Of a stretch of 64,000 bases of DNA, positions 18,048-59,210 are shown piece by piece. The translations under genes were made by a program, and so were the position numbers. Numbering within the stretch: position 1 is the first letter of the stretch; each line of letters begins with the position of its first letter. The notes under the pieces are model-generated. The model was not told the DNA's origin. It saw nothing but the letters and a program-made list of their open reading frames with translations, and made no database searches. This stretch comes from a virus, in IMG/VR virus record IMGVR_UViG_3300021963_009201, positions 1-64,000 of that record; one strand, 5' to 3'.

Positions 18048-21899
<3,852 letters not shown>

Positions 21900-28929: not shown

Positions 28930-30096
28930 ATGCCAGATGAAGAGAGACCGTACACATGGTTTCCAACCTCAACTGAAGAAGCTATAGCGATCAATGAAGA
29001 ACCAACTTCATTGCCTGACTGGTATGACCCGCCGCCAAATACGCTCCCGATAAATACCCCGCCAATAAATCGGGAAAGCGAATACACGCTTCCAAAATGG
29101 TATGAAAATACTGATGTTTCTGCAATAATAAATGAGAACCAGTATAATCAGTCTTTGGCTAATCCAATTAAAGTTGGCGGTAAATTAAATAAGGTTAACG
29201 ATTACGGCGCTACGGGATTGTATACATCCTATGCAGGTGTCGATATAGTGGCAACTATGGTCATACCCGGCCAAACAGAGCCAATTGACATTGGTGAACT
29301 CCAAACTATTTCTTATTCGATCCATAGGGAAAATGTACCTGTTAGGGTCTTGGGTAGGGTTGGACCAAGAGGTTTCGTTAAGGGTCCGCGAACTATAGCT
29401 GGAAGCTTAATTTTTACTCAGTTTGATAAATATTTCTTTTATAAATTAAGTACTTTTAAAAATCATTTGGCCAATAACCTATACCCACTTTCGGATATGC
29501 TTCCGCCATTTGACGTAACTATTTCTTTTTCGAATGAAAGCGGTTCTTTTTCGAAGCTTAAAATATATGGAATTACAATAGTTGACGAAGGTTCAACTAT
29601 GTCGGTTGATGACCTTATTACAGAACAAACTTTTACTTACATGGCGCGCGGAATACAGCCTTTGGTCAGCTATTTGCCAAATGATATTAAAGAAATTATA
29701 GATAGAGACTATTTAACTGATCCTGAAAAACGTAGCGATATATTGGTTATAGGCGGGGGCAGTCCAGGTGCTCCATCTATTCAAGTTCCTGCTGATGGAG
29801 GATCTCAATATCTCATTAAGCTGGCTCAATTGAGAAGTGAAAAGAATGAATTGATTAGGTCTCAAGGGGATACCCAGTATCAGTTTAATACATTTATAGG
29901 GCTCATGGCCGAATTGGGCGGAGAATACGTAGGTGATCTAGATAACCCAATTTATCTTGATAAGAAAGCCTACTATGAATATGAGATAGCACAACTACAG
30001 AATGACTTGAATTACTATGCTTTACGTATAGATGAAAAAGATAATCAAATTTTTGAATTTATAGCAAAAATGAAAGAATTAGGCATAGAAGAATAA
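28930..30096 (+). CDS. Tail tube paralog 2 with Pro-rich N-terminal and coiled-coil C-terminal extensions
   Basis: YAGVDI...IGELQTISYSIHRE..P...G...G.RTIAGSLIF..FD...PPFDVT.SF.NE.G aligns with 28180-28854. Confidence 0.75.
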   Translation: MPDEERPYTWFPTSTEEAIAINEEPTSLPDWYDPPPNTLPINTPPINRESEYTLPKWYENTDVSAIINENQYNQSLANPIKVGGKLNKVNDYGATGLYTSYAGVDIVATMVIPGQTEPIDIGELQTISYSIHRENVPVRVLGRVGPRGFVKGPRTIAGSLIFTQFDKYFFYKLSTFKNHLANNLYPLSDMLPPFDVTISFSNESGSFSKLKIYGITIVDEGSTMSVDDLITEQTFTYMARGIQPLVSYLPNDIKEIIDRDYLTDPEKRSDILVIGGGSPGAPSIQVPADGGSQYLIKLAQLRSEKNELIRSQGDTQYQFNTFIGLMAELGGEYVGDLDNPIYLDKKAYYEYEIAQLQNDLNYYALRIDEKDNQIFEFIAKMKELGIEE

Positions 30097-30968
30097 TGGC
30101 GATTTCAAGAGACACTAGAGACATTGAGCAAAGGAATGGCGCGATACAAAATCGTATGCCAACGGAGAGTATCCGCCGTAGAACGACTAGTAACGCACTA
30201 GCGTTAAGCCGCTCAAGTGAGCTAGATATATTAAATAGTGAGATAGATCTTCAGTGGGCATCTGCTTTTGGCGGGGCATCTGACAAATTCAATACTTATT
30301 ATGATTACTATTATTCGGGCCAAGATATTCAGGTATACATCGATGGCGCTCAGTCTCAATCGACTGGTGGGGCAATACCCATTGTAAGCTTTGGTTTTAA
30401 TATCAAGCAAGAAAAGCAGCCTCTATACGGTTTTTGGAGTTATACTTTTGATGCTATAATGCGCGGTAATCGTATAGTTAATGGCACTTTTACAGTGGCT
30501 ACAACATCTTTAAACTACATAAAAGATTTGTTAACTGAAGCTGCAGTCACCAGGAAGAAGGGAACTGAAAGTCTTTATCCGATAAGAAATTTAAATAAAG
30601 ATGAAGAAAATATAGAAAAATATTGGAGCCTTAACGTAGACTCCTCTTTGGTTGGTGTTACAGTGGATAACCAGCGTAATTTATGGAGTTCGCATCCGCC
30701 TTTCAATTTTGTTATAGTATATGGTATGCAGGACATTAGTATATCTGATTATACCTCAGGAAATTTAAAGAGGCTTAAAAATCCACAAAATCTTTTGGTA
30801 GATACTAATGATAGATTAGTTTCGGAGAATATAACTCCTACACGTCATGTGATAGAGAATGTTGAATTGACAAGCATGCAGGTAGAGTATACACCAGATG
30901 GTCAGCCAGTAGGTGAAACTTATACCTTCTTAGCTAGAGATTTGTTTAGTTATCAAGAAAAGGAATAA
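30096..30968 (+). CDS. Tail tube paralog 3 (tube initiator-like)
   Basis: YSGQDIQVYID...Q.K.PLYG...G.RIV.G.FTV...PPFN....YG...ETYTFLARD. Confidence 0.65.
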   Translation: MAISRDTRDIEQRNGAIQNRMPTESIRRRTTSNALALSRSSELDILNSEIDLQWASAFGGASDKFNTYYDYYYSGQDIQVYIDGAQSQSTGGAIPIVSFGFNIKQEKQPLYGFWSYTFDAIMRGNRIVNGTFTVATTSLNYIKDLLTEAAVTRKKGTESLYPIRNLNKDEENIEKYWSLNVDSSLVGVTVDNQRNLWSSHPPFNFVIVYGMQDISISDYTSGNLKRLKNPQNLLVDTNDRLVSENITPTRHVIENVELTSMQVEYTPDGQPVGETYTFLARDLFSYQEKE

Positions 30969-43526: not shown

Positions 43527-46500
43527 TTGTCTGAATACAGTGCTGAAGATGTAATTGATGTCCTGATTATTGCGTTTGAATTTCCTCCTAGTGACGTTTA
43601 TGGGCCTATGGAGCGATACCTGCTTTCTATAGGTAAGGTGTGGATTCAGAGTGAGGATCCAATTGGCGCATCTATTAAGCTTACAGAAACCCAGGCGCTT
43701 AATGCTGTAAAGCATTTCTTAAAGAATAGAGAAGTAGTAGCAGGTGGAACCTCGGATGGTTCAGACTACGATAGTTCCTTACCTTACGACGAAGAAGTGG
43801 TAAAGAAAGCCTTAAGCGAGGCTAACAGGACTTCTCTAAGTGGACAAAGTTCAGATTCAATTAAACGAATTATACAAAATTTAGATGATTTATTTGGCTT
43901 TGGTGTTATTCTGAGGGAGAAAGAATCAATTGAAGGCATAGTATCTTTCCTACAGAGTCCTGAAGGAATAGGAAATTTTTCAAAACTTTCATATGACGCA
44001 AGGGTTGCCCTCAACAACTTACTGAGCTTAAGAGATAATGGAGATTTCCATTCGAAAAGACTTTATAACTTGGCGCTTTCTGTTCTACCCCAGCTTAATA
44101 GGCTTTTAGATTCTTATGTTGATCTTCAAAAAAAGGAAGAGCAGTACGTAAAAGATAATGGCGTAGATCCGACTACACTATTCGCCAACTCTTTTATGTC
44201 GGTTTTCAGTGAAAAACCGTTGCAGATGGCGCTTTTTTATAAGGAAAATACTCAAAGAAGAATTAGTGAAGCATTTGCGCAACAATTCCAAAGGCCAAAC
44301 AATGATCCGCAGCCCGTACAGCCTTGGGAAATGAGAATTGGCGGGTCAAAGTTTTTCGTGCCACCAATTGATGTGAAAGTTTCCCAATTTTTTAAAACTG
44401 GCAGCTTAACGGGTGGAGCTATACGTCAAGCTTCATCACCAAAGTTTAATTCGGGCCACAGCGAAACCGCCATACAAACAACTATCTATTTCCCTAGTTT
44501 AGAGTCAATATGGGGAATTATAACGAGTGAAGAAAAACCAGAAGTATTTTTAAATTTTGATGACATTAATAAAACGAGCGATAAAGATGTAGACTATTTC
44601 CTTTCATCGTTAAGGGGCTTAATAGCTCAATTTAAATATGCGCCATTCCTTCCTGTCCGGAATCAATACTTAAATCAAGCATGGGGGATTACTGGCGTTA
44701 CGCTCAACAGTATGACTATATCTACTGTAGAAAATTATCCTTTCTGTGTTGCTGTAACGCTTAATATGATGAAGTTTAACCATAAAGTTTACCTTCCAAT
44801 GGTTGAAGATTTTAATCAGGCGGTCCACTGGGGCAGGTTTAGGCAGTACATGGGCAGGGCCGCTATGGCAATGCAAAATTCTTATAATCTAGGATTTTTA
44901 ACTGAGAGTTTGTTTGGCGACATTTGGGATAAAATTCCTTTTATAAATAGAGACAAACCAAAACCAGATCAAGATACCTTTGATACATCGGACGTATCTT
45001 TTTCTAGGCCAACGAAAGAAGGTTGGGCAAAAGATCCTACTAGAATTAAGTTCTACTACCCGTCAAAAACACCAATGGAGATTTTTGCACCAGATGACTC
45101 TATGTTTAGGCAAGAGCGGGAAGATGAAACTGTTGGTAGTTCTGATTACGAAAGAGATAAATCCGCATGGGAGTTGCTCCTTGGTAAGCTAGGTATTGAC
45201 GTTGACGTATACCCAGAAAGCGTTTATGACAACGTAAAAAACTACTCTCAAAGATTTACAACTTACCAAAACGAATGGACATACCTGGGCCAGTATCTAA
45301 AGTTTAATAGTCTCGTTGTCTTAAATATGACTCAGGATAAATTAATCAAATACCTGAACGAAAGAATATCTACCTTAGAAAAAGAGGGTACGATTAAAAA
45401 TGACGCAGACAAAAATAATTATACTTCAGCAATCGTGCAACGTTGGTACGATTTTATGTTCGGTGGATTTAAAGACACTGTATTCTATAGGAAGCTTTTA
45501 GAAAATACCCAATACAGAAATGGCAGTTTTACCATTAACGAGTGGGACGTCCCGATGGAAGAAATGGCGTTTGACGCTAAAAGCGTTTTCGTACAAGGTA
45601 TCTCTGTATCGCTTTCTAATAACTTTGCGAAACACCAAGTACAACTCCAGGATGAGCCTACTTATCAACATATTGGCGGCGGTGATAATAGAGTCGATAT
45701 ATCAATGATCGTTGTAGGTGAAGATAATCTTATCAGAATTCGCAGGATGTTTGATAAAATTGGTGGACTAGCAAGGCTAGAGCACGCCCACGGTGTGCTT
45801 GGTTTCCTTGGTGTTAAAAATGAACTAACCGCACTTGCCGGTATGAAGTATCTAATGCCGCTGACTTATGAGGTTGACACTATACCTGGTTACCCACGCG
45901 TATATAATGTTAGGTTGTCTTTTATAGACTTTGACATTTTTCAGCAGAAAAGAGAAAAACTCTCTTCTGATCTCCAGGTTGGGCTCAAAGACCTTTTTGG
46001 TAAGCGCAACCCATTCCTCAGGGTAAAGCAAGTCTGGAGCAGGTTTAACGCCTATCCGGATTTCCCTCTTACAATTAGGGACGAAAAAGACGACAAAGTT
46101 ATTGGGACGATTGATCCAGATTTTTATTTCCGGGCTTTTACTACATTTGATGATGATTTAACGTATTGGGGGAGTCTTCCAAAAGGTGAAGAAAGCCCGA
46201 TTGCATCAATGAACTCTGATGGAACTTTTCAGATTAACCCAAAGAAGGATGATGTAACTGCAAAATTAGCACAAGCTTCAGGAGAGGTAAAAACTGAACA
46301 GTATACGGTTAACAAGAAAAATACTGTATCGACCTACCCATTAGAACTGTACTTTAATATGCTAACTACTGGTGACGGTCAGGATACGAGTGCAATCGTT
46401 AAGTTAGCAAACGCTGGTGAGCTTATAGTTGGGACCCAACAGCAAAACGAAGACCCTAAGTTCCCAACTACAGGGAAACCAGTAAAGATGACAGAAGACA

Positions 46501-49500
46501 CCGCTGTCGCTACACAAACTGAACCATCAATTGCTGGGTTAACGCCTGGAGCGCAGATACAAAACCCTTACGCTAATGCTACAAATGACCCCTCCACTCA
46601 ATATGAGTTAATCATGAATGACGCAAAGTACCGCGACATTAACGGTAGGATGATTAGGGCATTCCCAACCTACATGTTGTGGCTCATAGATGAGGGCGGC
46701 AGGTTTGGCGGTGTAAAGTTGTTTGATAATTTTTATGGTCTTCAATCAGTTGTTGATTTTTCCATTAATCGTTCTGAGGATGTGCTTGGCGATACGCTCG
46801 TGCTTCGATTGTCAAATCTTTATTCAAAATTGTCGACACAATATAAGGGCTTTGTTAAGAGGCAGGATGGAACTGAAAATATTGTTTTAGATGACGATAA
46901 TGGAAATACAATAGAATCAGTCGCAGATATTCCTGAGTATTTAATACAAACTCAAGAGAATATTAACAGCGGTATGGACGATACCTATATCGTTGAATTA
47001 GACAGCATCAGATTGAAGCCTGGGGTTCGTGTACATATGCGTATGGGTTACGGCGCTAACCCAAATTCTCTAGAGACTGTTTTTAATGGTGTAATAACAC
47101 AGGTTCAGGCTGGGGATATTGTAGAGGTTATTGCACAATCAGACGCGATCGAATTAAGTCAGTATATCAACACGACCAACAAGAAGGGTCACTCCGGTGA
47201 CATCGATGGGGCAATTGGTACGGGTTTTTGGCTTTCTGAGCCAAGGGACCTTATGGTTCGACTACTGTCTATGGGTTCATCTCGCTTCAAAGAGGGTTTT
47301 GCTCATGCTACTCGTGGGCAGATTTTCTCTGAAAGCAGATTTGGTATTCGTCATTTTGGAACAATTCTTTATGAAGCATTAACGCCAAACGAAAAAGAAA
47401 GGCACGACAAAAGGTATCAAGCAGTCACAAGCAGACTTCAGGCTGTTGCGGGGTCTGATAGCGTATCTAAAGTTCTTGGGGCATCTGCTGGTACCATCTA
47501 CGACACGACGGCGAGTGATAATGAGGATAGTAAAAACAGTTTAATAGGCGGAAGTTTCAGCGGGTTCTTAGGGCAAGGTGCTGTGCGGACTAGCACCGAT
47601 GAAAGCGGGAAGGTAAGCATGCCACTACTTGGCCTTATGCAGAGTATGTGGACTAATTTCTTTACAAAAAGAGATTTTGAAATTTATAAAAGGAATATTT
47701 ATCCAGGCAACGGAACTGGTGTAGCCCAGTATCTCGGTGGGGATCTATTGGATTCTGGCCCAGTTTTACTTGAGGCTGCAGGTAGCCAGGCCGCAACTGA
47801 CACTTTCTTTAACAAGGATGCTAAGAGCATTTTCAGTCAGTTTAAGAGTGGGGAGCCAGGAAAAGACTCAAGGGATCAAGTTATCCAAAACACTATACTA
47901 AACCTTTCGCTTAGTGGTGAACGAATTGAGGATCAAGTGAGTCCGCAGAATAACGCGGCGCCAAGTAATTCTGATCCCAATGCGCCAGCAAATCAGGGTG
48001 CAAGTGGTCGCGACCCTTCTAGCGTTACGGCCGCTACCTTGCTTCTAGGGTCTGTTGGGGAAGCCGTCTTGATGAAAAGGGGCGCGCTAAAAAACAATCC
48101 ACTTTTACAGGCTCTTGGACTGATACAAGGTGGGGAAGCAGACTCTGACTTAAATGGTTTTGATGAGGTATCCTTTAGGGCCCAAACCTACATGAAGACT
48201 GTTTGGGATATGTTTAAGTTATGTGCGGCACTACTTCCCAACTACATCGTAGCGGTCCGGCCTTTCGAGGATAGGTCAACGGTCTTTTACGGTAAACCTC
48301 ATTGGCTGTATACCTCCGGAGTGATACCGCTTTCTACAGGTGTGCCGAAGGACGATGATAAGGTAAAACCAGAAGGGCCAGACGCAGAGCTAGAGAGAAT
48401 AATGAGGGAAGCAACAAATCTTGCTAATCCTTTGGCGGATTTAGAAAACCAAATGAAGTTTGTTAAGGATATTTCTTCATCAAATCCATTCACAAGTTTT
48501 ACTGGAACTCAAGCACCAGGGACAACTAATACTCCTGATTCATCCAGCGAAGTCATGACGCTTCCACTGGAGTCGGGCGGTGCAAAAATTCCAATTAGGT
48601 CCGGTAAAGTTGTAATGGGCAAACATTTAGAAGGTTATAACTATAATGCACCAGAATCGAACCTAAGCGATGCGATAAGTCGTATGACCATTTCGGAAAA
48701 AGCAGAAATAGTTACCGAGTACGCTACAGCGCAAAAGGATGAACTGGCAAAAAATAGTTCAAGAGATCCATTAACTGGGGAATTTTCGCAAGAGTACATA
48801 AGAAGAATGAATGCCCTTGACGAAATTCTAAAGAATGCAATTGACGAAGAAGAAGAGAAAATTGACGACTTCATTAAAGATCCAGTCAATTCTGGGATAA
48901 GAGGAAGATTTTTATCGGATGCTAGTTCAGTACATATAGAGCTACCCCAACTGCCAGACGTCCACAAATATGCAAATTTTAGAGCTGGAAGTTTATTCGT
49001 CGGTTTTGAAAATGGCACCCCACAAATCACCCCTGAAGGTGAACAGTGGTATATAAGAATGCGTTGGCCTTACATAAATTGGCAAGATTACCTTAAAAGG
49101 CAATGGGAAAGCCCCGAATCTGGTACTGGCGATCCAAGTAAATATTGGGGTAAAAAAGTTGCAGTATCTTTACCTGATTCTGGCAAGGTGGTCGTATGCT
49201 ACGCCATAGATGGCGGTCCTATGGATCCGGCTTTTAGGGCTGAAGTTTCTCCAGATGTTTATTACGCTTTAGATTTAGCAGGATATCCACAGAAAGATTG
49301 CTATTTTGGTTTTGTAGATGACAATGTAAGACTTGGTCCGGTTGGTGGGTCGTTAAGCACAGAGACTGGACGTAGACTTGATGTGTCAAGTATACCAGTT
49401 CCAACAAGAGCAATAGTTGATGGCAGGTCTTACGAAACAATAGTTGACCCTGATCAGGCTTTTGAACGACTAACATCGGACACTAATGCAGAAACACTTT

Positions 49501-52500
49501 TTGGTGAGCAATACTACTTTATAAATTCATTCTTGTATGGCTGGCTTGCTGGTGGCGGAAATAATAACCCTAGGGCGTCAGGCTATTACGGGAACTTCGA
49601 CGATGCAAACAAGGAAAACGACGCCCAGTTTGCCGATAAGTATATCTCCCTTTTAGATAACGGAATAAAAGGTAGTATAAGGGCTGACGATAATGCTATT
49701 GGTGCCTTTGATATTGTTGGCGAAATAGCGAGGCGAATTTACGATGTGGACTACAATGAGCGTAGACTTGAACTATTGAAAGATTCGGACATAGCCAGTA
49801 ATTACCTTCGTGATACTGGCTTAACTTTCGACAAGCTAGTAGAAAAAGCCAATGCCAATTACGAAGCATTCAACAACGCCCGAAAATTTTATGGAGATTA
49901 TAAAGGGGATACTGAAACGACCGCAGAAGAAATTTGGGATATATTCAGAAAACAATGGCATATCAGAACTGATAAGGAATATCTAGAGGTTAAGGAAGCG
50001 GCAATTGAATTTATTAACCAAATCGGCTTACCTATAAATGATCCAAATAATGCTTTAGGTTTTGACGAAAATTGGTATGATGGTTCTACATCGGGTCAAG
50101 GTTTTGATAGCAGCGCTGAAAGTGAAGCTGTTGACAAGGTTATATTTAGCACTAATATGACAAAGATTGTTAATAATTTTAAAATGCTTATGTGGCGTCT
50201 CCCCTACGCCAGGGCTTGGCTAGTTATTACTACGGGAAGAACGCCAGATACTGGTGAGTTACTTGCCGCTAGTGTTGGGGCTTCAGTCGTTACCCTCAAC
50301 CCAGTTCCAGCAGTTGCTGCGTTAGCTACTGATGCTTTAGATGATAATCCTTTTGACTTTAAAAATAGTGATATTACAAAGCTATGGAGATGGTATTTAG
50401 GGCTTAATGCAGATGGGTATAAGAAAAACGATACTGCTGTTTCTGCGTTAATAAATGCGGCAGCATTAGATAATGAAAATAGCTTTAATGGTTTTAGTTC
50501 ACAGATTAATCTTTCCCCAGATGCAAAAACCGGCGCAAGTATATTTGCAAATGAAGCTTTAGTTGGTAGATTTATCGAGGCCTTAAAACACTACAAGAGG
50601 GTCGGTCTTAAGGGTAATGGAGCTCAGCAGGCAATTGAGAGAATTGGTCAAGTTTGGAACCAAACAATAGGAGCATTCTTTACATTAGTTAGTAGCGCAT
50701 TAAGCGGAGTTGTGGCAACATTCAGACTATCCCTAATGCAGATGGGCTATGGCATGGGAATGCTTGGAGCTATGCAACAGCAAGCTAATATCTTAAATCG
50801 TGCTTTAAATGACTCTATTTATTATAGTCTCGGCGAACCTGGTTCTGCGATATGGCTTGCGGACAATCCATTCACTAGAGAGTATGGGGAACCGGTTATT
50901 GAGATTAGGGAGCCATTCCAAAGATTCCATTACATTAATTCTTTTCAAGATATTATTGATAATGGGATTCAAGAAAAACTTGATAATATACCAACTGTGG
51001 TCACAGCTAGTTCGGATGGCAAGTACCCTGTTACGGTTTATTTCGATAAGGGAACTTCTCCCGAGAAGCAGTTTGAAGTGGGAATTGAGACAGGACTTTT
51101 TTGGGACAATGCAAGAGGCAGTGGTTTTTTCGGTTTCCTGCATCCTCTCTTGCACCCGTTTGAAACAATGCGCGGTTTAGCTAAAAGCGCAAGCGGCTCA
51201 TCTGACGAAATCCTTTCGAGAAGAGTTGGGCTATCGTATCTCAAAGAATCCCTAAAAGACATTTATGGAGGCGAAGTTGTAATCATTGGTAGGGCCGATA
51301 TACGTCCGCACGACCTTGTGTACCTCGCCGATACGTACGAGCGGATGTACGGAATATTCGAGGTAGAGGCTGTTACACACCATTTTACTAGCGACATGGG
51401 TTTTGTGACAGCAATTACACCAAACGCTGTTGTTACAGTAAATGACCCTGCGCGCTGGGTGTACCAATCCTGGATCTGGGGTCTTTTTGGGGTGCAGAAT
51501 ACAAGGAATCATGTAAGGCACCTTCTCTCGGTAACGGCCGATAGGTCTTCAAGAGTTTACAACGATGTTCTTGCTTTCGTAGACAGTAATGGGGAAGTTG
51601 ACATGAGCGGCTTCGCCGAATCGATTGAGGACACAATCCGCGGTAGTGTCCAGTTTACTGGTGGAAATTCTGGGCTAGTAAAAGATATAGCTTCTCATGC
51701 CGCCGCAGGCTACGCGGTTCCTAGTGGTTCTTCTTACAGTATAGCTCCAGATAGTTGGGAGCAAAGCGCCCAAAATATAGGAAGCCTTTTTTCAAGTCCG
51801 GGAGCAACTTTTGCGTCTTGGATTCCCGGAGTGAATAAGTTGCTTGACGTAGCTTGGGAGGGTTGGACATGGGTTAGGGATAATCTCCTTGACCAGCATG
51901 GGTGCTATATACAGTATTTAAGCAAAGATGGGCAACCAATGGATGCAGGCCTCAGTTTCAATCAGGGTGTCGCGGTTGGTCATCATCACTCGATTAATTT
52001 ATTACCTGGAATACTTGGGGTTGAAGTTGACACGACCGAAAATGGTCATAGGCGTATTACAATTAACGACCTTATGGGTTCACTTGGTTGGAGTGAGTTA
52101 GAGATATCCAGTATTCAGCGGCAGGTTAGCTGGTGGAACAATTATTGGAATGCGCGCGTGCTAGATTATGCTGGCAAGGGACCAGACCCTGTTACTCTTA
52201 CTCGCCCTAATGCCTATTTAGCAAAGGTTATAGCTATGAGTACCGACGATGATGACGGTAATGGCATAGTCGACGGCGATACGTTCTCTTGCCAAAAGCT
52301 AGACGCCGATGGCAACCTAACTGGGTCTACATTTAAGATTCGTTTAGCGGGTATTGATACTGCAGAGCTTGATTTCAAGCAAGATATCCAGAGAAATGAT
52401 TCGTCGCAAAAAGCCTATATTGCACGGCAATTTTTGGAGAAACGTTTGATTACGGATCAAGTAGCAAATGGCCTTGAGCCAATTGTCGCAGTTAGGGAGT

Positions 52501-52817
52501 CTATTGGTGCGGGTGTGGATGGAAGATTTGGTTCTAAGGATAAGTACGGCCGAACGCTTGCTGTCGTATTTCATAATGGTGATTACGACAAATTGGCATC
52601 AAGCGCCGAAAAAGAAAGGCAGAGAAGAGATTCTCTACTAAGAAACGCTTCTTCGTGGCCTTTGATTCCCTGGGATTCATTTACCGCAGATGGTAGGACT
52701 TACACTGTTAATTGGGAAATAGTTGTTTCTGGATTAGCTTATACAGATATGGGCGGAGTTAAGGCTGGGGACCCTGACGCTAGGTATAGTTCGGGAAACT
52801 TTACTGGGGGTAATTGA
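43527..52817 (+). CDS. Giant baseplate hub (gp27/gpD-like) with internal RlpA-like barrel and C-terminal thermonuclease domain, 3096 aa
   Basis: TTG start; hub motifs VHMRMGYG...VFNG.IT.V....VEVIAQS and IIGRADIRPHD.V.L.D....YG.FEVE.VTH.F....GFVT.ITP; SNase motifs near the C-terminus. Confidence 0.75.
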   Translation: MSEYSAEDVIDVLIIAFEFPPSDVYGPMERYLLSIGKVWIQSEDPIGASIKLTETQALNAVKHFLKNREVVAGGTSDGSDYDSSLPYDEEVVKKALSEANRTSLSGQSSDSIKRIIQNLDDLFGFGVILREKESIEGIVSFLQSPEGIGNFSKLSYDARVALNNLLSLRDNGDFHSKRLYNLALSVLPQLNRLLDSYVDLQKKEEQYVKDNGVDPTTLFANSFMSVFSEKPLQMALFYKENTQRRISEAFAQQFQRPNNDPQPVQPWEMRIGGSKFFVPPIDVKVSQFFKTGSLTGGAIRQASSPKFNSGHSETAIQTTIYFPSLESIWGIITSEEKPEVFLNFDDINKTSDKDVDYFLSSLRGLIAQFKYAPFLPVRNQYLNQAWGITGVTLNSMTISTVENYPFCVAVTLNMMKFNHKVYLPMVEDFNQAVHWGRFRQYMGRAAMAMQNSYNLGFLTESLFGDIWDKIPFINRDKPKPDQDTFDTSDVSFSRPTKEGWAKDPTRIKFYYPSKTPMEIFAPDDSMFRQEREDETVGSSDYERDKSAWELLLGKLGIDVDVYPESVYDNVKNYSQRFTTYQNEWTYLGQYLKFNSLVVLNMTQDKLIKYLNERISTLEKEGTIKNDADKNNYTSAIVQRWYDFMFGGFKDTVFYRKLLENTQYRNGSFTINEWDVPMEEMAFDAKSVFVQGISVSLSNNFAKHQVQLQDEPTYQHIGGGDNRVDISMIVVGEDNLIRIRRMFDKIGGLARLEHAHGVLGFLGVKNELTALAGMKYLMPLTYEVDTIPGYPRVYNVRLSFIDFDIFQQKREKLSSDLQVGLKDLFGKRNPFLRVKQVWSRFNAYPDFPLTIRDEKDDKVIGTIDPDFYFRAFTTFDDDLTYWGSLPKGEESPIASMNSDGTFQINPKKDDVTAKLAQASGEVKTEQYTVNKKNTVSTYPLELYFNMLTTGDGQDTSAIVKLANAGELIVGTQQQNEDPKFPTTGKPVKMTEDTAVATQTEPSIAGLTPGAQIQNPYANATNDPSTQYELIMNDAKYRDINGRMIRAFPTYMLWLIDEGGRFGGVKLFDNFYGLQSVVDFSINRSEDVLGDTLVLRLSNLYSKLSTQYKGFVKRQDGTENIVLDDDNGNTIESVADIPEYLIQTQENINSGMDDTYIVELDSIRLKPGVRVHMRMGYGANPNSLETVFNGVITQVQAGDIVEVIAQSDAIELSQYINTTNKKGHSGDIDGAIGTGFWLSEPRDLMVRLLSMGSSRFKEGFAHATRGQIFSESRFGIRHFGTILYEALTPNEKERHDKRYQAVTSRLQAVAGSDSVSKVLGASAGTIYDTTASDNEDSKNSLIGGSFSGFLGQGAVRTSTDESGKVSMPLLGLMQSMWTNFFTKRDFEIYKRNIYPGNGTGVAQYLGGDLLDSGPVLLEAAGSQAATDTFFNKDAKSIFSQFKSGEPGKDSRDQVIQNTILNLSLSGERIEDQVSPQNNAAPSNSDPNAPANQGASGRDPSSVTAATLLLGSVGEAVLMKRGALKNNPLLQALGLIQGGEADSDLNGFDEVSFRAQTYMKTVWDMFKLCAALLPNYIVAVRPFEDRSTVFYGKPHWLYTSGVIPLSTGVPKDDDKVKPEGPDAELERIMREATNLANPLADLENQMKFVKDISSSNPFTSFTGTQAPGTTNTPDSSSEVMTLPLESGGAKIPIRSGKVVMGKHLEGYNYNAPESNLSDAISRMTISEKAEIVTEYATAQKDELAKNSSRDPLTGEFSQEYIRRMNALDEILKNAIDEEEEKIDDFIKDPVNSGIRGRFLSDASSVHIELPQLPDVHKYANFRAGSLFVGFENGTPQITPEGEQWYIRMRWPYINWQDYLKRQWESPESGTGDPSKYWGKKVAVSLPDSGKVVVCYAIDGGPMDPAFRAEVSPDVYYALDLAGYPQKDCYFGFVDDNVRLGPVGGSLSTETGRRLDVSSIPVPTRAIVDGRSYETIVDPDQAFERLTSDTNAETLFGEQYYFINSFLYGWLAGGGNNNPRASGYYGNFDDANKENDAQFADKYISLLDNGIKGSIRADDNAIGAFDIVGEIARRIYDVDYNERRLELLKDSDIASNYLRDTGLTFDKLVEKANANYEAFNNARKFYGDYKGDTETTAEEIWDIFRKQWHIRTDKEYLEVKEAAIEFINQIGLPINDPNNALGFDENWYDGSTSGQGFDSSAESEAVDKVIFSTNMTKIVNNFKMLMWRLPYARAWLVITTGRTPDTGELLAASVGASVVTLNPVPAVAALATDALDDNPFDFKNSDITKLWRWYLGLNADGYKKNDTAVSALINAAALDNENSFNGFSSQINLSPDAKTGASIFANEALVGRFIEALKHYKRVGLKGNGAQQAIERIGQVWNQTIGAFFTLVSSALSGVVATFRLSLMQMGYGMGMLGAMQQQANILNRALNDSIYYSLGEPGSAIWLADNPFTREYGEPVIEIREPFQRFHYINSFQDIIDNGIQEKLDNIPTVVTASSDGKYPVTVYFDKGTSPEKQFEVGIETGLFWDNARGSGFFGFLHPLLHPFETMRGLAKSASGSSDEILSRRVGLSYLKESLKDIYGGEVVIIGRADIRPHDLVYLADTYERMYGIFEVEAVTHHFTSDMGFVTAITPNAVVTVNDPARWVYQSWIWGLFGVQNTRNHVRHLLSVTADRSSRVYNDVLAFVDSNGEVDMSGFAESIEDTIRGSVQFTGGNSGLVKDIASHAAAGYAVPSGSSYSIAPDSWEQSAQNIGSLFSSPGATFASWIPGVNKLLDVAWEGWTWVRDNLLDQHGCYIQYLSKDGQPMDAGLSFNQGVAVGHHHSINLLPGILGVEVDTTENGHRRITINDLMGSLGWSELEISSIQRQVSWWNNYWNARVLDYAGKGPDPVTLTRPNAYLAKVIAMSTDDDDGNGIVDGDTFSCQKLDADGNLTGSTFKIRLAGIDTAELDFKQDIQRNDSSQKAYIARQFLEKRLITDQVANGLEPIVAVRESIGAGVDGRFGSKDKYGRTLAVVFHNGDYDKLASSAEKERQRRDSLLRNASSWPLIPWDSFTADGRTYTVNWEIVVSGLAYTDMGGVKAGDPDARYSSGNFTGGN

Positions 52818-53728
52818 TGGCCCACTTTGATTTTTCTTTAAATGATTTCACTAATGAGAAAAATATCTCTAATGCCGTAATTAATAAGTCAAAAAATTAC
52901 ACACCAAATGGACAGGCTAAAGCGATAAAAACATCTTTTTCTCAACTTCCCTTAGACAAGCAAAGGCCTTTAACAACTACTAACGTTTCAGATATGCTCC
53001 AGGGCACAACGGTCTATAAGCCAATGGGTTTGATATACAATTCCTTTAATGATGTTTTGTCTAGGGATATACAGCTGGCAAGGAATGTGAAAGTTGGCGA
53101 TAGGTTGCTGTCTATGGATAAAGCCCATACAGGGCTGTTGCCTTACGATTCGAATAAGAGGGACGCTTCAATAGATATAGCTTCTAGCGTAAATGCCTTG
53201 ACAACCAGTGCGGGGTCAACTGGAACACCAGCAGCCGCAGACAATGGAACCACAACTTCTGCGGGAGGCCAAGGCTCTGGCCCCGGAACCGAGATATTTG
53301 TCCCGCCCGCTGGTAAATCGTGGCCTAAGGGCACACTTTCTATCGACGACGTTGCTAAACTAGTCATTGAAGTTGGAATTTCTGAAGACGCCCAAGCTGT
53401 ATTGGTAGCCATTTCTCATCGAGAGTCTAGCTTTAGGACTGGAGCCTATAATCCTGTTGGACTAGATAATTCTTGGGGTCTATGGCAGATTAATACTATT
53501 GACGGGGCAAGCCCGCAGTATCGACGTTATGACCTAACCGATCCTTATACAAATGCAAGAGTTATGGCTATCATGTCCGGTAGTGGGGCCAATCTGCATC
53601 CCTGGTATACCCAGCACGATGGCAGCAATGAACCTGGCTACAGTAGCGCATATAGTGTTCAAGACTTTTTGCCAGAAGCTATTGCCGCAGTTCAGAGGGT
53701 TAAGGCGCAGGGTTATAGGGCTGGGTAG
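52817..53728 (+). CDS. Lysozyme-like lytic transglycosylase (SLT/Rpf-like) with shared N-terminal domain
   Basis: TGATG overlap gives ATG 52817; AISHRESS (catalytic Glu), SWGLWQIN, L.DP..NA..M, HPW. Confidence 0.85.
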   Translation: MAHFDFSLNDFTNEKNISNAVINKSKNYTPNGQAKAIKTSFSQLPLDKQRPLTTTNVSDMLQGTTVYKPMGLIYNSFNDVLSRDIQLARNVKVGDRLLSMDKAHTGLLPYDSNKRDASIDIASSVNALTTSAGSTGTPAAADNGTTTSAGGQGSGPGTEIFVPPAGKSWPKGTLSIDDVAKLVIEVGISEDAQAVLVAISHRESSFRTGAYNPVGLDNSWGLWQINTIDGASPQYRRYDLTDPYTNARVMAIMSGSGANLHPWYTQHDGSNEPGYSSAYSVQDFLPEAIAAVQRVKAQGYRAG

Positions 53729-53759
53729 TCCAAATTGATACACAACCTGTTAATAACTA

Positions 53760-53768
53760 TTACTATAT
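53760..53768 (+). promoter_or_regulatory. TTACTATAT promoter-like motif
   Basis: Recurrent motif in the 122-nt intergenic gap before the amidase; a second TTACTAA lies at 53827. Confidence 0.45.
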
Positions 53769-53850
53769 CCAGTAGGGATTAGATGAATAAAGTAAAGAAC
53801 GTCAATATAAAAATTATTACATTTTCTTACTAAGATTGGCATAGAGACTG

Positions 53851-54855
53851 ATGGCCCACTTTGATTTTTCTTTAAATGATTTTACTAATGGGAAAAATAT
53901 TTCTAATGCTATTATTGGAGGAACTAAGAGTTACACGCCAACCGGAGAGGCAAAATGGTTGAGGACTACGTATTCCATGGTAGACGCAAAAGCTCAACAG
54001 TCTTTAACAACCGCGTCTGTTTCGGATATACTTCAGGGAAATTTGCTACTTAAACCTGTTGCCCTTAATTATACGCAGTTTAATGAAGTTACTTCTAGTA
54101 TATCGAAAGTCGCTAATACTACTAAAGTTCAAGATAAGGTTGGAGCGCTTGGTTATAGGAAATACCTTGCTGGATTCGACACGGTCGGCGCCGTAAATAG
54201 TCTTATTAATCTTAATATTAATACTACAACATCGCCTAATAGTATTACGCCAACATCTCCAAGCCCAACTGGTGCATCAAGTATCCGCCCTATTGCGGGC
54301 GGTTACTACCTAATTAACCACCCACCTGCAAGTCCGCAATTCCACGAAAGTAGGAATAACGGCCTTAGTGGCGGTGTGGTTTTGCACACCACCGAAGGTG
54401 GCGGAGGTTATCAGTCGGCGGAAGCAACGGCAGCCTTTATATCGCGCAGATCAGACCCTGGATCGTACCATTGCATAGTGGATTCCGAACCAAATACGGC
54501 TGTCTATATGATGCCAGACAATTATACAGCCTTTGGTGTAGCTACTCCCGGATTTAATAGTAGGTGCTGGAATATCGCAATAGCGGCAAATTCTGCAGAT
54601 TTGAACCCAAGTAGCCCAGAAACATTAACCGAAATCGACAATATGGGTAGAGAAATTGTTGCGTTCTGGGCTAGGAATAGTATAGACCCAACACAGGGTG
54701 TCAGGTTTGTCGGGAATGGAGTTAAAGATGGGCCAGGTCTTGCACATCACGGGGATGTTCAGCCGGGAGACAGGTCAGACGCATGGGCTCGCCGAGAAGA
54801 TAGGGAGCTTTTTGATGCTTTATTATTGCAGGCTATAGCTCGCCATGCTATTTAG
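53851..54855 (+). CDS. N-acetylmuramoyl-L-alanine amidase (Amidase_2-like) with shared N-terminal domain
   Basis: VVLHTTEG (Zn-binding His), SYHCIVD, LAHHGDV...DRSD. Confidence 0.82.
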   Translation: MAHFDFSLNDFTNGKNISNAIIGGTKSYTPTGEAKWLRTTYSMVDAKAQQSLTTASVSDILQGNLLLKPVALNYTQFNEVTSSISKVANTTKVQDKVGALGYRKYLAGFDTVGAVNSLINLNINTTTSPNSITPTSPSPTGASSIRPIAGGYYLINHPPASPQFHESRNNGLSGGVVLHTTEGGGGYQSAEATAAFISRRSDPGSYHCIVDSEPNTAVYMMPDNYTAFGVATPGFNSRCWNIAIAANSADLNPSSPETLTEIDNMGREIVAFWARNSIDPTQGVRFVGNGVKDGPGLAHHGDVQPGDRSDAWARREDRELFDALLLQAIARHAI

Positions 54856-54868
54856 GTAGGTTGATATA

Positions 54869-55702
54869 ATGGCACACTTTAATTTTAGTTTAAAAGATTT
54901 TGCCAACGGTAAGAATATTAGTAATTCTATTATCGATAATCAAAAAAACTATACTCCAAGCGGTGAAGCTAAATGGTTGAGTACTACCTACTCAAAAACC
55001 CCGGTCAAAGCTAACACTTCAATGACTACAGCAAATATCTCCGATATATTACAGGGGCAACTCTTGTATAAGGATCCTGGATTAGTTGCTACTCAGTTTA
55101 ATGAAGTTTTATCTTCAGATATGGCAAAATTGCTCAGCGCCAGTGTGGACGGTAAAAATACTTACATTACCAAACCTATGGCACAGTTAGTTGGATACGA
55201 TATACCGGCACAGTCCGATATTGGTTCTATTATCGTGAACAATATAGGTACGGCCTCAGCAGGGACTAATGCATCGAGATCTCCTGCTACTGGCGCCCCA
55301 AATACTGGAGGTGGTCAGACGGGGGTACCGACCCCAATTCCAGAAAGTGGTACTGCGGTAGAATTCGCCCTTTCTCGTATAGGTTGCAGGTATGTTTGGG
55401 CGGCAGAAGGTCCCGATACTTTTGACTGCTCGGGTTTAGTAACTTGGTCTTATAGGAAGGTCGGGATAAATCTGCCCCATTACAGCGGTGCCCAATACAA
55501 TATAACCCAAAGGATAACTGAAGAGCAGCTTCAGTCGGGAGACCTGATTTTCTGGGGGGGGAATGGAAGTGAGCATTGTTCCATCTATATTGGGAACAAT
55601 GAGATGGTTCACGCTTTTGATGGCGTGCAAAAAACGCTTTTTATATTTTCTTATGGATACTGGTGGAAAAAGCCGTCTGGATATGGTCGAGTTGTAAGAT
55701 AG
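54869..55702 (+). CDS. NlpC/P60 peptidoglycan endopeptidase with shared N-terminal domain
   Basis: YVW..EGP..FDCSGL...LPHYS..Q...GDLIFW....HCSIYIG...MVHA. Confidence 0.9.
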   Translation: MAHFNFSLKDFANGKNISNSIIDNQKNYTPSGEAKWLSTTYSKTPVKANTSMTTANISDILQGQLLYKDPGLVATQFNEVLSSDMAKLLSASVDGKNTYITKPMAQLVGYDIPAQSDIGSIIVNNIGTASAGTNASRSPATGAPNTGGGQTGVPTPIPESGTAVEFALSRIGCRYVWAAEGPDTFDCSGLVTWSYRKVGINLPHYSGAQYNITQRITEEQLQSGDLIFWGGNGSEHCSIYIGNNEMVHAFDGVQKTLFIFSYGYWWKKPSGYGRVVR

Positions 55703-55728
55703 TTTATTCGGATAATACAATTACAACT

Positions 55729-55737
55729 TTACTATAA
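55729..55737 (+). promoter_or_regulatory. TTACTATAA promoter-like motif
   Basis: 22 nt upstream of ATG 55760; GGAG RBS in between. Confidence 0.45.
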
Positions 55738-55759
55738 GTAAGAGCCTAGTGGAGAAGTT

Positions 55760-56137
55760 ATGAATATCGCGAACAATCCAAAATTTAACCAATATATAGA
55801 TTCCAAAATTCAAACTTCTGATGAAACAAGGAATATAGATAGGTTCGGTGTTGTTTTATCGTACAATGGCGTGACTAATACGGCTACTGTATTGATGTCT
55901 TCGCCTAGTACTGAATCGGCTGGCGATATAATAGAAAATGTACCGTGCCCTGTGTTGATGGGTATACAGATGGCAGCCCCAGAGCCAGGCCGTCCGTGTT
56001 GGGTTTGCTTTAAAGGTAATCGCGGAGAAAAGTATCCAATGATCAGCCATTTTTTTAACCATGATTTTGAAAAGTACGACTACCAAAGGCACACGGCAGC
56101 TTCTACTGGTATCCCCTTCTATATGTTGAGTATGTGA
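55760..56137 (+). CDS. Baseplate spike OB-fold protein (gp5/gpV N-terminal-like)
   Basis: GVV.SY....TATV...IENVP.P...G....P.PG..CWV.F..N...YP.I pattern. Confidence 0.65.
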   Translation: MNIANNPKFNQYIDSKIQTSDETRNIDRFGVVLSYNGVTNTATVLMSSPSTESAGDIIENVPCPVLMGIQMAAPEPGRPCWVCFKGNRGEKYPMISHFFNHDFEKYDYQRHTAASTGIPFYMLSM

Positions 56138-56490
56138 TGACTACATTTAATCGGCCTAATGAGGCTTTATTTCAGAAAAGTAAATATAGCCCTACCGAAG
56201 TTGGTATAACACACCAAGCAGTACCAGCATATATACGACTTTGTGATAATGGCGATATAGAAATCATGGCTGGTGAGGGGATAGGGCTTGTCTTGCATGC
56301 AGCTAATAAAAGTGTCACTATCATAGCCGATAGTATTAAGATGATGACGAAAGAGGACGGTTTAAGGTGGAATGATCACCACTTCAACCCAAATGGCTCA
56401 GAATGGACAGAGCCTGCCCTTCTCAAAAAAGATTTACAGCAAATGCGCGGAGTGTTTGACGGTATTGAAGATTACATTGGCGGCCAATGA
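56137..56490 (+). CDS. Probable baseplate spike beta-stranded part
   Basis: Alternating beta pattern YIRLCDNGDIEI.AG..G..L......VTI.AD.I; lies between the OB-fold and gp25-like genes. Confidence 0.45.
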   Translation: MTTFNRPNEALFQKSKYSPTEVGITHQAVPAYIRLCDNGDIEIMAGEGIGLVLHAANKSVTIIADSIKMMTKEDGLRWNDHHFNPNGSEWTEPALLKKDLQQMRGVFDGIEDYIGGQ

Positions 56491-56870
56491 TGGACCTTTA
56501 TTTTTCTGAATCTGGTGATCTAAAACTGTCCCCAACTAGAGATTTAGCCCTTACCGACACCGGGTGGAGAGAGAAGGCACAAACCGCATACATGATAGTT
56601 CAGACTGAGCCGGGCGATTTTACGCTTTATCCAAGGTTTGGGGCAAATTTGTCGGAACTTTATGGAATGCCACAATCTGCAGAAACTGGCGAGTACGGTA
56701 AAAAAATTATCGAAGATGCTTTAACTAGATACAACTCGTTTAAAAATTCGGAAATTAATGTGGTGGCAATTCCAACTGGTCCACAAACTATAAGATTTGA
56801 CATTTATATTATTAATGGTTCTAAAAAACAAATGACTATCTCTGTCGAGCAAAAACTAGGATTGACATAA
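56487..56870 (+). CDS. Baseplate wedge gp25-like (sheath initiator)
   Basis: DLYF...GDL...DLAL...TE.GD...YP.FG.NL.EL.G...I..AL. Confidence 0.75.
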   Translation: MMDLYFSESGDLKLSPTRDLALTDTGWREKAQTAYMIVQTEPGDFTLYPRFGANLSELYGMPQSAETGEYGKKIIEDALTRYNSFKNSEINVVAIPTGPQTIRFDIYIINGSKKQMTISVEQKLGLT

Positions 56871-56871
56871 A

Positions 56872-58014
56872 ATGGCTGTTTATTTTAAAAAAACAAGAGA
56901 TCAAATTTTACAAGAAGCTTTAGCAAAAATAAAAGATAGGACATTAATAAGTGCAACAAATCCAGGTTCGGTAACAAGGGCAATTACCGAAGCTATAACA
57001 ACAGAGCTTGGTGATTTCTACGATATCTTGGACGCAAATATAAGTCAGTCTCTTATATCGACCGCCTCTGGTCGGGCCTTGGATAGCCTTGGGTCTATTT
57101 ATGATATAAAAAGAAAAACTCTTAGTGATATAGCAAAAGCTGATCAAAGAATTGGATCATTTTATTTCTATGTCGAAAATACTCATGAGTCACCAATTAT
57201 TATCCCATCAGGTACAAAAGTGTTTACTAGTTCCGTAGGTTATGTTGGTAGGCAACTTGCTTTTTCTACAGATTATGAGGTAACTATTCCGGTTGGGTCA
57301 CTGCGTGCGTATGTTTCTATAACTCCTCTTTTTTCTGATAATATTTTTACAGCTCCTAAAGGGACCTTGATATCTAACGATTACATAAGTCCGACAAATA
57401 CGCTGGTTAAGTGCACAAACCCGAAACAGATCGCGGCATCAGATGCTTATGAGACTGACGCGGACTACCGTGCAAGAATCATTAAGGGTATTAGGGTGGC
57501 ATCTTCCGGGACAATTGAAGCTGTCAGGTTCGCCGGACTGAACGTTGAGGGTGTAAGAGATATTAAAATACGTCAATCCCCATATGGCCTGGGCTCTTTT
57601 GAGGTTATGGTTGTTTCAGAGCAGGAGAATATAGCTGCAACAGTAACCCGACAAGTTAGAACTGTGATAGAGAATGTAAGGCCTGTTGGTGTTACTATGT
57701 TCGTTAGGTCTCCTGTCCTCAGACCTCTAGACATGAGCGTCTCAGTTATGAGTAACGTTGTTAATTCGCCTGAATACGCTAATTTACGTGACCGAATTAG
57801 GATAGCAATTACAAGATATTTGAATACACTAATGCCTGGTGATACTATAGTCTACAATAAGATGATACAGGAAATGATGGATTCATCTGGTATAATAAAA
57901 GATATTCAAGTTTTGAGATATGCGCCAAATGGCGTTGATTCTATAAGGAGAAATTACACTCCTAAAGAATATGAGCAAGTAGTTCCAGGTAATATTCAGG
58001 TTTCAATATCCTAA
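56872..58014 (+). CDS. Baseplate J-like wedge protein
   Basis: PGSVTRAI...TASG.ALD.LG...I.R...ETDADYRARI...GT.EA...A...V.GV..RPVGV. Confidence 0.88.
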   Translation: MAVYFKKTRDQILQEALAKIKDRTLISATNPGSVTRAITEAITTELGDFYDILDANISQSLISTASGRALDSLGSIYDIKRKTLSDIAKADQRIGSFYFYVENTHESPIIIPSGTKVFTSSVGYVGRQLAFSTDYEVTIPVGSLRAYVSITPLFSDNIFTAPKGTLISNDYISPTNTLVKCTNPKQIAASDAYETDADYRARIIKGIRVASSGTIEAVRFAGLNVEGVRDIKIRQSPYGLGSFEVMVVSEQENIAATVTRQVRTVIENVRPVGVTMFVRSPVLRPLDMSVSVMSNVVNSPEYANLRDRIRIAITRYLNTLMPGDTIVYNKMIQEMMDSSGIIKDIQVLRYAPNGVDSIRRNYTPKEYEQVVPGNIQVSIS

Positions 58015-58028
58015 GGATGGTTTTGTAA

Positions 58029-59210
58029 GTGAGAGTTTGCGCAGGGCCGGACTGTACCGACGAGTTCGAACCGGTAGTTCATAACCAAAAGTATTGTGGT
58101 CCAGTATGTAAAAGGGCCGCAGAAAATGCGGCAAAAAGAAAAGCTTTTACCGAAGATGTGGCACAGGCAGTAGTTAAGAGTGTCGCACCTGCATACATTG
58201 AACTAGATGATGAAGAGGAAAGAATTGATTTCCTTCAGAAAGAAGTATTGAGGCTATCAAGATTAGCAGATAAAAGAAAATCAGCTAAAAATGAAATTGT
58301 CGACGTAACATACCAGGCAGCGTTTGATGCATTTTCAGATTTTCAACTACCATCAATATCTAAACCCTCATATCGCAAATCTGGTCCAGGCGACGAAGAG
58401 GTTGCGGTAGCAGTCTGTGCTGACTGGCAGCTCGGAAAGGTTACTCCTAGTTATAATTCCGAAGTATGTAGGGAAAGGATTGAGCTTTTTGGCGACAAGA
58501 TACTTTCTATTACAGAAATGCAGAGGGCAGATCACCCGGTAAAAGATATTCACCTTTGGTTCCTTGGGGATATAGTTGAGGGTGAAGAGATTTTTGCTGG
58601 ACAAAGCCATTTATTAGATTCTGGCATATATAGGCAGGTGGGCGTTAACGGTCCAGAAATTATATCAGATCTAATCCTTAAGCTACTGACCGGTTTTGAG
58701 AATGTTCATGTTGTAGGCGTTATAGGTAACCATGGATCTATAGGTGGGCGTGGCCGAAGAGATTATAACGGCGAAACAAATATGGATCGCCTACTCTATA
58801 AGATAGTTCAGTATATCTTTAAGGATGAAAAAAGAGTAACGTTTAACATACCCGATGGTCATGGTGAAAGACATTTTTATGCAATTGACTCAATTGGCGA
58901 GTATGAAACACTCCTAATTCATGGCGACCAATTCCCTCCGCCAACCACAACGCACGCATATTACAAGAAAGTAATGGGCTGGAAAGACGGTGCAATACCA
59001 GAAAGTTTCCAAGATGTTTACATGGGGCATTACCACCAAAATGCTAAGATGACACTCGGCAACACTATTTTACGGGTATCTGGTTCACCAGAAAGCTATA
59101 ACACATATGCTCAGGAAGTTCTTGCTGCAATGGGTAGGCCGTCACAAAATTTGCAATTCATACACCCAATTAACGGTGTAACAGGTGAGTATACTGTTTG
59201 GCTAGACTGA
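58029..59210 (+). CDS. Calcineurin-like metallophosphoesterase with N-terminal C4 zinc finger
   Basis: C-x4-C...C-x3-C at the N-terminus; ADWQLG, GDIVEG, GNHG, IHGD and GHYH motifs. Confidence 0.85.
   Translation: MRVCAGPDCTDEFEPVVHNQKYCGPVCKRAAENAAKRKAFTEDVAQAVVKSVAPAYIELDDEEERIDFLQKEVLRLSRLADKRKSAKNEIVDVTYQAAFDAFSDFQLPSISKPSYRKSGPGDEEVAVAVCADWQLGKVTPSYNSEVCRERIELFGDKILSITEMQRADHPVKDIHLWFLGDIVEGEEIFAGQSHLLDSGIYRQVGVNGPEIISDLILKLLTGFENVHVVGVIGNHGSIGGRGRRDYNGETNMDRLLYKIVQYIFKDEKRVTFNIPDGHGERHFYAIDSIGEYETLLIHGDQFPPPTTTHAYYKKVMGWKDGAIPESFQDVYMGHYHQNAKMTLGNTILRVSGSPESYNTYAQEVLAAMGRPSQNLQFIHPINGVTGEYTVWLD

Follow-up and report, generated by a model that had tools for sequence, protein, structure and literature searches.

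A common N-terminal module on three tandem wall hydrolases, a probable anchor for entry lysins at the tail-tip hub of an uncultured phage

Introduction

Why should a phage place three different peptidoglycan hydrolases side by side, each behind the same N-terminal region, among the genes of its baseplate? The question is raised by three tandem genes at positions 52817–55702 of the stretch analysed here (the window), the opening 64 kb of an IMG/VR virus record of 190,033 bp (IMGVR_UViG_3300021963_009201; estimated completeness 90%) that represents an uncultured, ~190-kb, contractile-tailed phage, distant kin of the Bacillus phage 0305phi8-36 lineage. An earlier note on this DNA had proposed that the region common to the three proteins is a docking tag that loads interchangeable enzymes onto the baseplate or hub. 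From the domain architecture of the proteins, the family to which the common region belongs and the conserved gene order, we infer their presence in the virion, their docking and their partner: they are probably entry lysins that the virion carries, fixed to the hub/spike complex without a covalent link by a new type of N-terminal anchor.

Each lysin comprises a module of ~110 amino acids (aa), a flexible leash rich in Pro/Ser/Thr/Gly and a single catalytic domain, with the predicted chemistries of a lytic transglycosylase, an N-acetylmuramoyl (MurNAc)-L-Ala amidase and a D-glutamate–meso-diaminopimelate (D-Glu-mDAP)-type NlpC/P60 endopeptidase. In the mechanism proposed, the module would anchor each enzyme non-covalently at the tail-tip hub/spike complex and, on contraction, the tethered enzymes would open the wall locally, allowing DNA entry. 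A common anchor would also permit the catalytic domains to be duplicated, exchanged and recombined as cassettes.

Three catalytic domains behind one module

The three open reading frames exist as described in the earlier note, all on the + strand, and the ~110 N-terminal residues of their products align. Lysin 1 (303 aa; 52817–53728) has its module at 52817–53146, followed by a linker rich in Pro, Ser, Thr and Gly (PSTG; residues 116–180) and an SLT_3/SLT lytic transglycosylase-like domain (residues 181–265); its start was placed at the ATG at 52817 and not at the TTG at 52814, because MAHF begins all of the homologues. Lysin 2 (334 aa; 53851–54855) has its module at 53851–54180, a PSTG linker at residues 112–150 and an Amidase_2 domain at residues 151–333, while lysin 3 (277 aa; 54869–55702) has its module at 54869–55198, a PSTG linker at residues 116–165 and an NlpC/P60 endopeptidase domain at residues 172–254. 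The linkers of all three consist to 69–74% of P/S/T/G/A/N, in agreement with the linker composition noted previously.

All of the catalytic domains score above their Pfam cut-offs, and the motif positions given earlier (53423, 54385 and 55424) proved exact. For lysin 1, SLT_3 (PF18896) scores 41.7 bits (cut-off 27; E 1.6e-10) and SLT (PF01464) 22.4 bits (cut-off 21.3); Glu203, within HRESS (an E-S motif) at nucleotide (nt) 53423, is assigned its catalytic role from the motif alone, and a sequence search found no solved homologue of the domain. For lysin 2, Amidase_2 (PF01510) scores 28.8 bits (cut-off 26; E 1.8e-6), or 30.3 bits in a genome-wide scan; the HTTE motif at nt 54385 and an AHHGD motif are both kept in an endolysin paralogue of the same genome (see below), and no homologue of known structure was alignable at the sequence level to place the Zn-binding His/His/Cys-or-Asp triad. 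The NlpC/P60 domain of lysin 3 (NLPC_P60, PF00877) is the strongest match, with 89.2 bits (gathering cut-off 23; E 2e-25), Cys187 in DCSG at nt 55424 and His residues in SEH and VHA. It is nearest to the mycobacterial RipA/RipB/RipC, and in an alignment to RipB (2xiv) the FDCSGLV and GS.H..IY.G motifs are kept.

The modules have 23 invariant columns within residues 1–82, with MAHF-F-L-D, LTT-VSDILQG and FN-LS among the conserved motifs, and remain alignable to about residue 110, matching one another within the genome at E 1e-30 to 1e-70, a similarity far beyond chance. The near identity of the first two genes at the DNA level, also remarked on earlier, holds for 56 of the 60 nt with which the SLT and amidase genes begin. 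No fourth copy of the module was found in the genome, leaving three. Scans of 52,500–56,200 for promoters and terminators returned matches at the level of shuffled sequence only.

The module family and its fused enzymes

A profile of the N-terminal ~110 residues, as the earlier note had suggested building, was constructed from 12 modules and searched against 1.84 billion representative proteins, of which 61 matched at E <= 1e-3 and 22 at E <= 1e-10. Nearly all of the 61 are proteins of 260–340 aa in which the module begins at residue 1. A Pfam scan of the 61 returned VanY (13 proteins), Peptidase_M23 (nine), NlpC/P60 (seven) and SLT_3 (six), followed by Peptidase_M15_4 and GDSL lipase/esterase (three each), Phage_lysozyme2, Amidase_2 and Amidase_5 (two each) and single cases of CHAP, Glucosaminidase and Phosphatase, so that at least 10 wall-hydrolase families are fused to the module. 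This fusion pattern identifies the module as an N-terminal part dedicated to wall hydrolases that are interchangeable and, together with the hub-adjacent gene order in 10 related loci, supports the earlier proposal of exchangeable enzymes behind a common domain near the baseplate or hub. Two long proteins (903 and 1048 aa, with Big/LVIVD domains) match the module only partially and internally, and both matches were judged probably spurious.

In some members of the family a GDSL/SGNH-type esterase stands behind the module in place of a peptidoglycan hydrolase, and in one a DSP-phosphatase-like domain (L011:3649-4581, P0024, P0046 and P0058); the esterases could be de-O-acetylases or envelope lipid esterases.

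The module itself matches nothing in Pfam, PHROGs or NCBIfam, and no relatives were found among 50,697 phage records by near and protein-level searches, nor was anything confirmed by a single-sequence pattern scan of IMG/VR. A profile search against the PDB gave only chance-level matches (E 0.015–3), the best of which, at E 0.015, aligned positions 63–98 with coronavirus HR1 coiled coils, which at most hints at a heptad-like helix. The possibility raised earlier that the N-terminal domain is a known cell-wall-binding domain thus found no match in Pfam, PHROGs, NCBIfam or the PDB profile search. The module has no hydrophobic segment, transmembrane segment or signal peptide and, lacking a hydrophobic segment, is not a signal peptide or a signal-arrest-release (SAR) anchor. 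Fold searches with a low-confidence model of the module (Foldseek against the PDB and BFVD, and a wide VIA-align search) returned no credible match (E >= 0.12 and Z <= 3.0). ESM Atlas gave no feature match; its best structural row (TM-score 0.50, 'collagen-like repeat preface domain') derives from a model with pLDDT 0.55 and was not used.

Gene order at the baseplate hub

The gene upstream of the trio (43527–52817, +) encodes a baseplate hub of 3096 aa, homologous to gp147 of 0305phi8-36 (T4 gp27-type; phrog_20474, E 2.9e-123), with five colinear BLASTP blocks at 24–30% identity; tblastn also matches gp147 and its relatives. In 0305phi8-36, gp147 has been described as a 'hyperplastic' T4 gp27 homologue with peptidoglycan hydrolase domains, including an N-terminal transglycosylase (Hardies et al. 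2007, PMC2147016), and its C-terminus carries a fused NlpC/P60 domain (residues 1633–1741) and an M23 domain (residues 1796–1880). A Pfam search of the window hub found no hydrolase domain. Its C-terminus instead holds a staphylococcal-nuclease-like domain (residues ~2912–3021, window 52230–52750; phrog_452, E 2.4e-4) with an RLAGIDTAE motif, and a hub with a staphylococcal-nuclease domain has also been reported for BtI1, a prophage-like relative of 0305phi8-36 (PMC2147016). Hub and lysin 1 are divided by a stop codon, and the wall hydrolases form no part of the hub polypeptide.

The two systems share, beyond the homologous hub, the order of tape-measure-protein (TMP)-like giants, hub, gpV-like, gp25-like and gpJ-like genes, as well as a tail-tip enzyme set: the transglycosylase, NlpC/P60 and M23 of 0305phi8-36 recur as three separate module-tagged genes in the related contig L007. 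The difference is that the enzymes of 0305phi8-36 are covalent parts of gp147, whereas here one to three separate proteins of ~300 aa each carry a module that is absent from gp147. Given the colinearity with gp147 and the same genomic place, the hub-covalent enzyme set of 0305phi8-36 appears here as separate module-tagged proteins. An origin by gene fission with a retained linker is unsupported, with hhalign probabilities below 1% for the module profile against the C-terminal third of gp147, KLEB27-3 gp036 and the Moorella phage CDS0037.

Downstream of the trio, the first gene (55760–56137, +) encodes a P2 gpV-like protein of 125 aa, an OB-fold spike base, with 27% identity (E 7e-5) to the 'P2 gpV-like' gp148 of 0305phi8-36. 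It directly follows the lysins across the related loci and may adjoin them, or be their partner, within the hub complex. It is followed by a conserved protein of 118 aa (56134–56490, +; the second gene after the lysins by synteny in the related loci) that has no family match in Pfam, PHROGs or NCBIfam, by a gp25-like baseplate wedge or sheath initiator of 127 aa (56487–56870, +; weak Pfam matches to GPW_gp25 and Sheath_initiator, and PHROG baseplate wedge matches) and by a Baseplate_J wedge protein of 380 aa (56872–58014, +; PF04865, E 8.4e-18; phrog_6, E 8.6e-42).

This order is maintained in the 10 related contigs examined, as far as each of them reaches: a giant of ~3000 aa, one to three module lysins, proteins of ~123 and ~118 aa, a gp25-like protein, a Baseplate_J protein of ~380 aa, a protein of ~393 aa and, finally, giants with Big_1/Invasin_D3 and PG_binding_1 domains. 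In the window and all 10 related loci the module lysins are flanked by the hub on one side and by the gpV-like, 118-aa, gp25-like and Baseplate_J genes on the other, which argues for a role of the lysins at the hub. In the window the stop codon of the hub (TGA, 52815–52817) overlaps the ATG of lysin 1 by 1 nt, and the same overlap follows from the gene coordinates in L004, L005, L009 and L017, suggesting translational coupling of lysin 1 to the hub.

The enzymes in this slot vary. L004 and L005 have SLT, Amidase_2 and NlpC/P60 like the window (the third lysin of L005 is cut by the contig end, and its module is 96–100% identical to that of the window NlpC/P60 lysin); L007 has SLT, M23 and NlpC/P60; and L006 has M23 and NlpC/P60, the contig beginning within the M23 gene. 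L011 encodes VanY, a protein with a weak GDSL match, and M23, L009 encodes two lysins with no family assigned and an Amidase_2, L012 has VanY alone, and L017 has one protein of 333 aa with no Pfam match.

Two further observations concern this block. The 393-aa protein within it (window 58029–59210) matches a PHROG 'exonuclease' (phrog_284, E 2.4e-40), is metallophosphatase-like and has an N-terminal Cys-rich, zinc-ribbon-like motif; the gene is kept in place in the related loci, with the exception of L012, which has an RNase_H_2-type protein of 304 aa instead. The hub gene of L012 (L012:476-10000) has a LAGLIDADG_2 match, a possible intein or homing-endonuclease insertion.

Recombination within the module

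In the clade of the window the module falls into two parts, residues 1–52 being homogenised within a genome and residues 53–110 being specific to the position of the gene. Over residues 1–52, the paralogues of L004 are 85–94% identical to one another and 54–67% identical to the modules of the window, while over residues 53–110 orthologues are 70–100% identical and paralogues 33–46%. The SLT gene of L005 matches the amidase gene of the window at 147 of 150 positions over nt 1–150 and the SLT gene of the window at 179 of 180 positions over nt 151–330; read from these identities, it is a clean gene-conversion tract of ~150 nt in which the 5' end of an amidase gene was copied in. In L007, where M23 stands in place of the amidase, the module is retained at 79–81% identity.

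That residues 53–110 are position-specific, and kept despite the exchange of amidase for M23, is what an ordered heteromer with a separate place for every paralogue would predict, and such a heteromer is possible in the clade of the window. A universal model of three distinct slots was rejected, however, since the three modules of L009 and L011 are alike over their whole length and L012 and L017 have a single gene. With a copy number of one to three, three distinct positions are not obligatory and the suggestion in the earlier note of one enzyme per symmetry position does not stand as an obligatory rule; equivalent docking sites, occupied by the products of one to three genes, agree with the data. 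A self-comparison of the hub revealed no internal repeats able to serve as three docking sites. As a more specific and rather unlikely variant, the modules of the paralogues may co-assemble, for example through an amphipathic helix at residues ~70–90, into a trimeric stalk on the three-fold axis of the hub or spike, giving one heterotrimer per virion that would combine three bond specificities, or a homotrimer where there is a single gene.

Entry or lysis

The same hydrolase domains could serve the release of progeny, and the gene content of the rest of the genome bears on this. A canonical endolysin, with an Amidase_2 domain and two PG_binding_1 repeats, is encoded at 103,325–104,398, outside the window, and shares 75% identity over 183 aa with lysin 2 in the catalytic domain. 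One catalytic domain thus exists in two forms, with PG_binding_1 for lysis and with the module in the baseplate block. The next gene (104,543–104,980) encodes a protein of 145 aa with one hydrophobic N-terminal segment (Kyte-Doolittle 1.57) and a coiled-coil-like tail, which has no family match except a weak IcmG/DotF-like one and is a weak holin candidate. BLAST searches with every catalytic domain known from the family returned no wall hydrolases in the genome other than the trio and the endolysin, and no Amidase_3, Phage_lysozyme or GH25 genes were found in it.

Three features characteristic of tail-associated lysins coincide in the trio, namely a catalytic domain with its motif, a location in a tail/baseplate gene block and a distinct endolysin elsewhere in the genome. 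A holin-like neighbour, a wall-binding domain and a signal or transmembrane segment, which mark canonical endolysins, were not found for the trio. The earlier note had argued for entry because no holin was seen; the entry role remains the likely one, with the separate endolysin as its stronger support, while the argument from the holin reflected only the limits of the window.

Four points weigh against docked entry lysins. An AlphaFold2 model of the isolated module (67-row alignment) is poor and non-compact (pLDDT 63, pTM 0.27, helices at 8–24 and 70–90) and matches no known fold, and the function of the module thus rests on its context. No resemblance of the module was detectable either to the junction between hub and lysin domains in gp147 or to the stand-alone lysins of KLEB27-3 and the Moorella phage. 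The holin candidate beside the endolysin is only a weak call, based on one segment and no family. Lastly, the stand-alone lysins of BtI1 just downstream of its hub resemble classical endolysins (PMC2147016), and position by itself is therefore no proof of an entry role.

The BtI1 genes (PMC2147016) also lend some weight to a quite improbable alternative, in which the trio is a multi-enzyme endolysin set that acts from within, the module has a regulatory, oligomerisation or wall-targeting role and the adjacency to the hub reflects late co-expression. All three of the catalytic domains are common in endolysins (phrog_12609 and phrog_700, 'endolysin'). Several enzymes are, moreover, often present in actinophage lysis cassettes. 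Such a set would, however, be encoded in addition to a complete endolysin that has two PG_binding_1 repeats and lies elsewhere, beside the gene for the protein with one hydrophobic segment, while no holin-like gene was found beside the trio. It would also leave to be accounted for the strict synteny that the trio keeps, across 10 loci, with the hub, spike and wedge genes, the overlap of the lysin start with the hub stop and an N-terminal module for which the family searches gave no known wall-binding domain.

An equally doubtful alternative keeps the enzymes in the virion and makes the module a loading or ejection signal, the enzymes residing inside the tail lumen or hub chamber with the tape measure and being expelled before the DNA. 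In favour of this, the isolated module is predicted to have little structure, with short helices that form no compact fold, and the extreme N-terminus of the module (MAHF-D/N-F) is strongly conserved; the long PSTG leashes, on the other hand, suit an externally tethered enzyme. Least credible is a module that is a new cell-envelope-binding domain for wall polymers (teichoic-type or arabinogalactan-type ligands) that would concentrate the enzymes at the host surface, any attachment to the virion being made elsewhere in the protein. Wall hydrolases invariably accompany the module, as they do binding domains, but the family and profile searches gave it no similarity to known binding domains, PG_binding_1 is used where wall binding is evidently wanted (in the endolysin and in a fibre protein of ~2000 aa in the relatives), outside its one gene slot the module has only the two partial internal matches already dismissed, and its invariant start at residue 1 and strict hub-adjacent synteny would be unexpected for a wall-binding domain.

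Comparison with known systems

As entry lysins docked at the hub, the trio would belong to a known kind, the tail-associated lysins; the split, module-tagged and polymorphic form, and the module family, are new. T4 gp5, phi29 gp13, lactococcal Tal and diffocin CD1368 (PDB 8v3w) likewise place a wall hydrolase at the hub or spike for local opening during entry, and the NlpC/P60 domain of lysin 3 matches the Hub-Hydrolase domain of CD1368 (E 3.3e-16). In these systems, however, the enzyme is a domain of the structural spike or hub protein, with one or at most two chemistries, whereas the trio consists of free-standing paralogues with a common predicted anchor and three chemistries. KLEB27-3 encodes a separate lytic transglycosylase-like 'structural protein' (gp036) after its hub. 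A stand-alone wall hydrolase is also found in the jumbo Bacillus phage vB_BpuM_BpSp, whose GH25 hydrolase Gp255 was detected in the virion by proteomics and zymogram and binds a baseplate protein (Yuan & Gao 2016, PMC4870245). Gp255 differs from the trio in being one lone GH25 enzyme that carries three LysM repeats, an endolysin-like architecture with neither a common N-terminal module nor an array of paralogues.

A conserved N-terminal attachment part combined with an exchangeable C-terminal activity is known from tailspikes and fibres (CBA120 TSP1-4 and the N-domain of T7 gp17) and from the adaptors of polymorphic toxins and contractile-injection effectors. By analogy, the module lysins would follow the same logic, including recombination at the conserved part, although no similarity in sequence or fold was found, and the module carries wall hydrolases where those parts carry receptor-binding or toxin domains.

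Wall hydrolases of the tail tip are almost always domains of a structural protein, and here they are free proteins with a dedicated common module. With ~60 sequence clusters and at least 10 hydrolase families in one fixed gene slot, the family represents a natural cassette system for entry enzymes in which the mechanics of recombination are visible, as gene conversion at the 5' end and as swaps of catalytic domains behind a constant module. The phage also offers a clear case of a single catalytic domain that serves twice within the same genome, with a predicted anchor for entry and with PG_binding_1 for lysis. If the docking role holds, the module would define a new family of virion-attachment domains, provide a simple mount for fixing enzymes of choice to phage tails and help to find the entry lysins of uncultured actinophages; if the heterotrimer holds as well, it would serve as a portable and programmable handle by which selected enzymes could be displayed on the tail of a phage.

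Host and other features of the genome

The host is probably an actinobacterium, as the earlier note had guessed. Two WhiB-family genes lie outside the window on the - strand (126,232–126,414 and 144,119–144,286; 55.6 and 35.6 bits) and, with the resemblance of the NlpC/P60 domain to mycobacterial RipA/RipB/RipC and the PG_binding_1 repeats of the endolysin, suggest such a host. The G+C content of the genome (~42%) is unusually low for an actinobacterial host, and the cultured relatives of the hub have Bacillus and Moorella hosts, in contrast to these pointers.

Every gene of the window lies on the + strand, among them several that are unconnected with the lysins. A collagen-like fibre protein of 1283 aa (18048–21899) is G-X-Y and GPTG-rich, with short globular inserts that break the triple-helix repeats, and its gene accounts for a local rise in G+C to 0.59 (about 0.41 elsewhere). 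Further fibre-like genes lie just upstream of the endolysin, far from the main structural block (genome ~101,694–103,213), and encode a protein with Mtd_N and collagen repeats (224 aa) and a Gly_rich_2 protein (281 aa). Tail-sheath-like C-terminal halves occur in two separate genes of the window (15145–16812 and 26792–28126; phrog_279 and phrog_16991), and the phage may have two sheath paralogues. Between the second of these and the tail giants, three consecutive paralogues (28180–28854, 28930–30096 and 30096–30968) match phrog_9206 ('major head protein') over its N-terminal stretch of ~165 positions; the label looks doubtful for these proteins, which may be tube or tail-associated paralogues.

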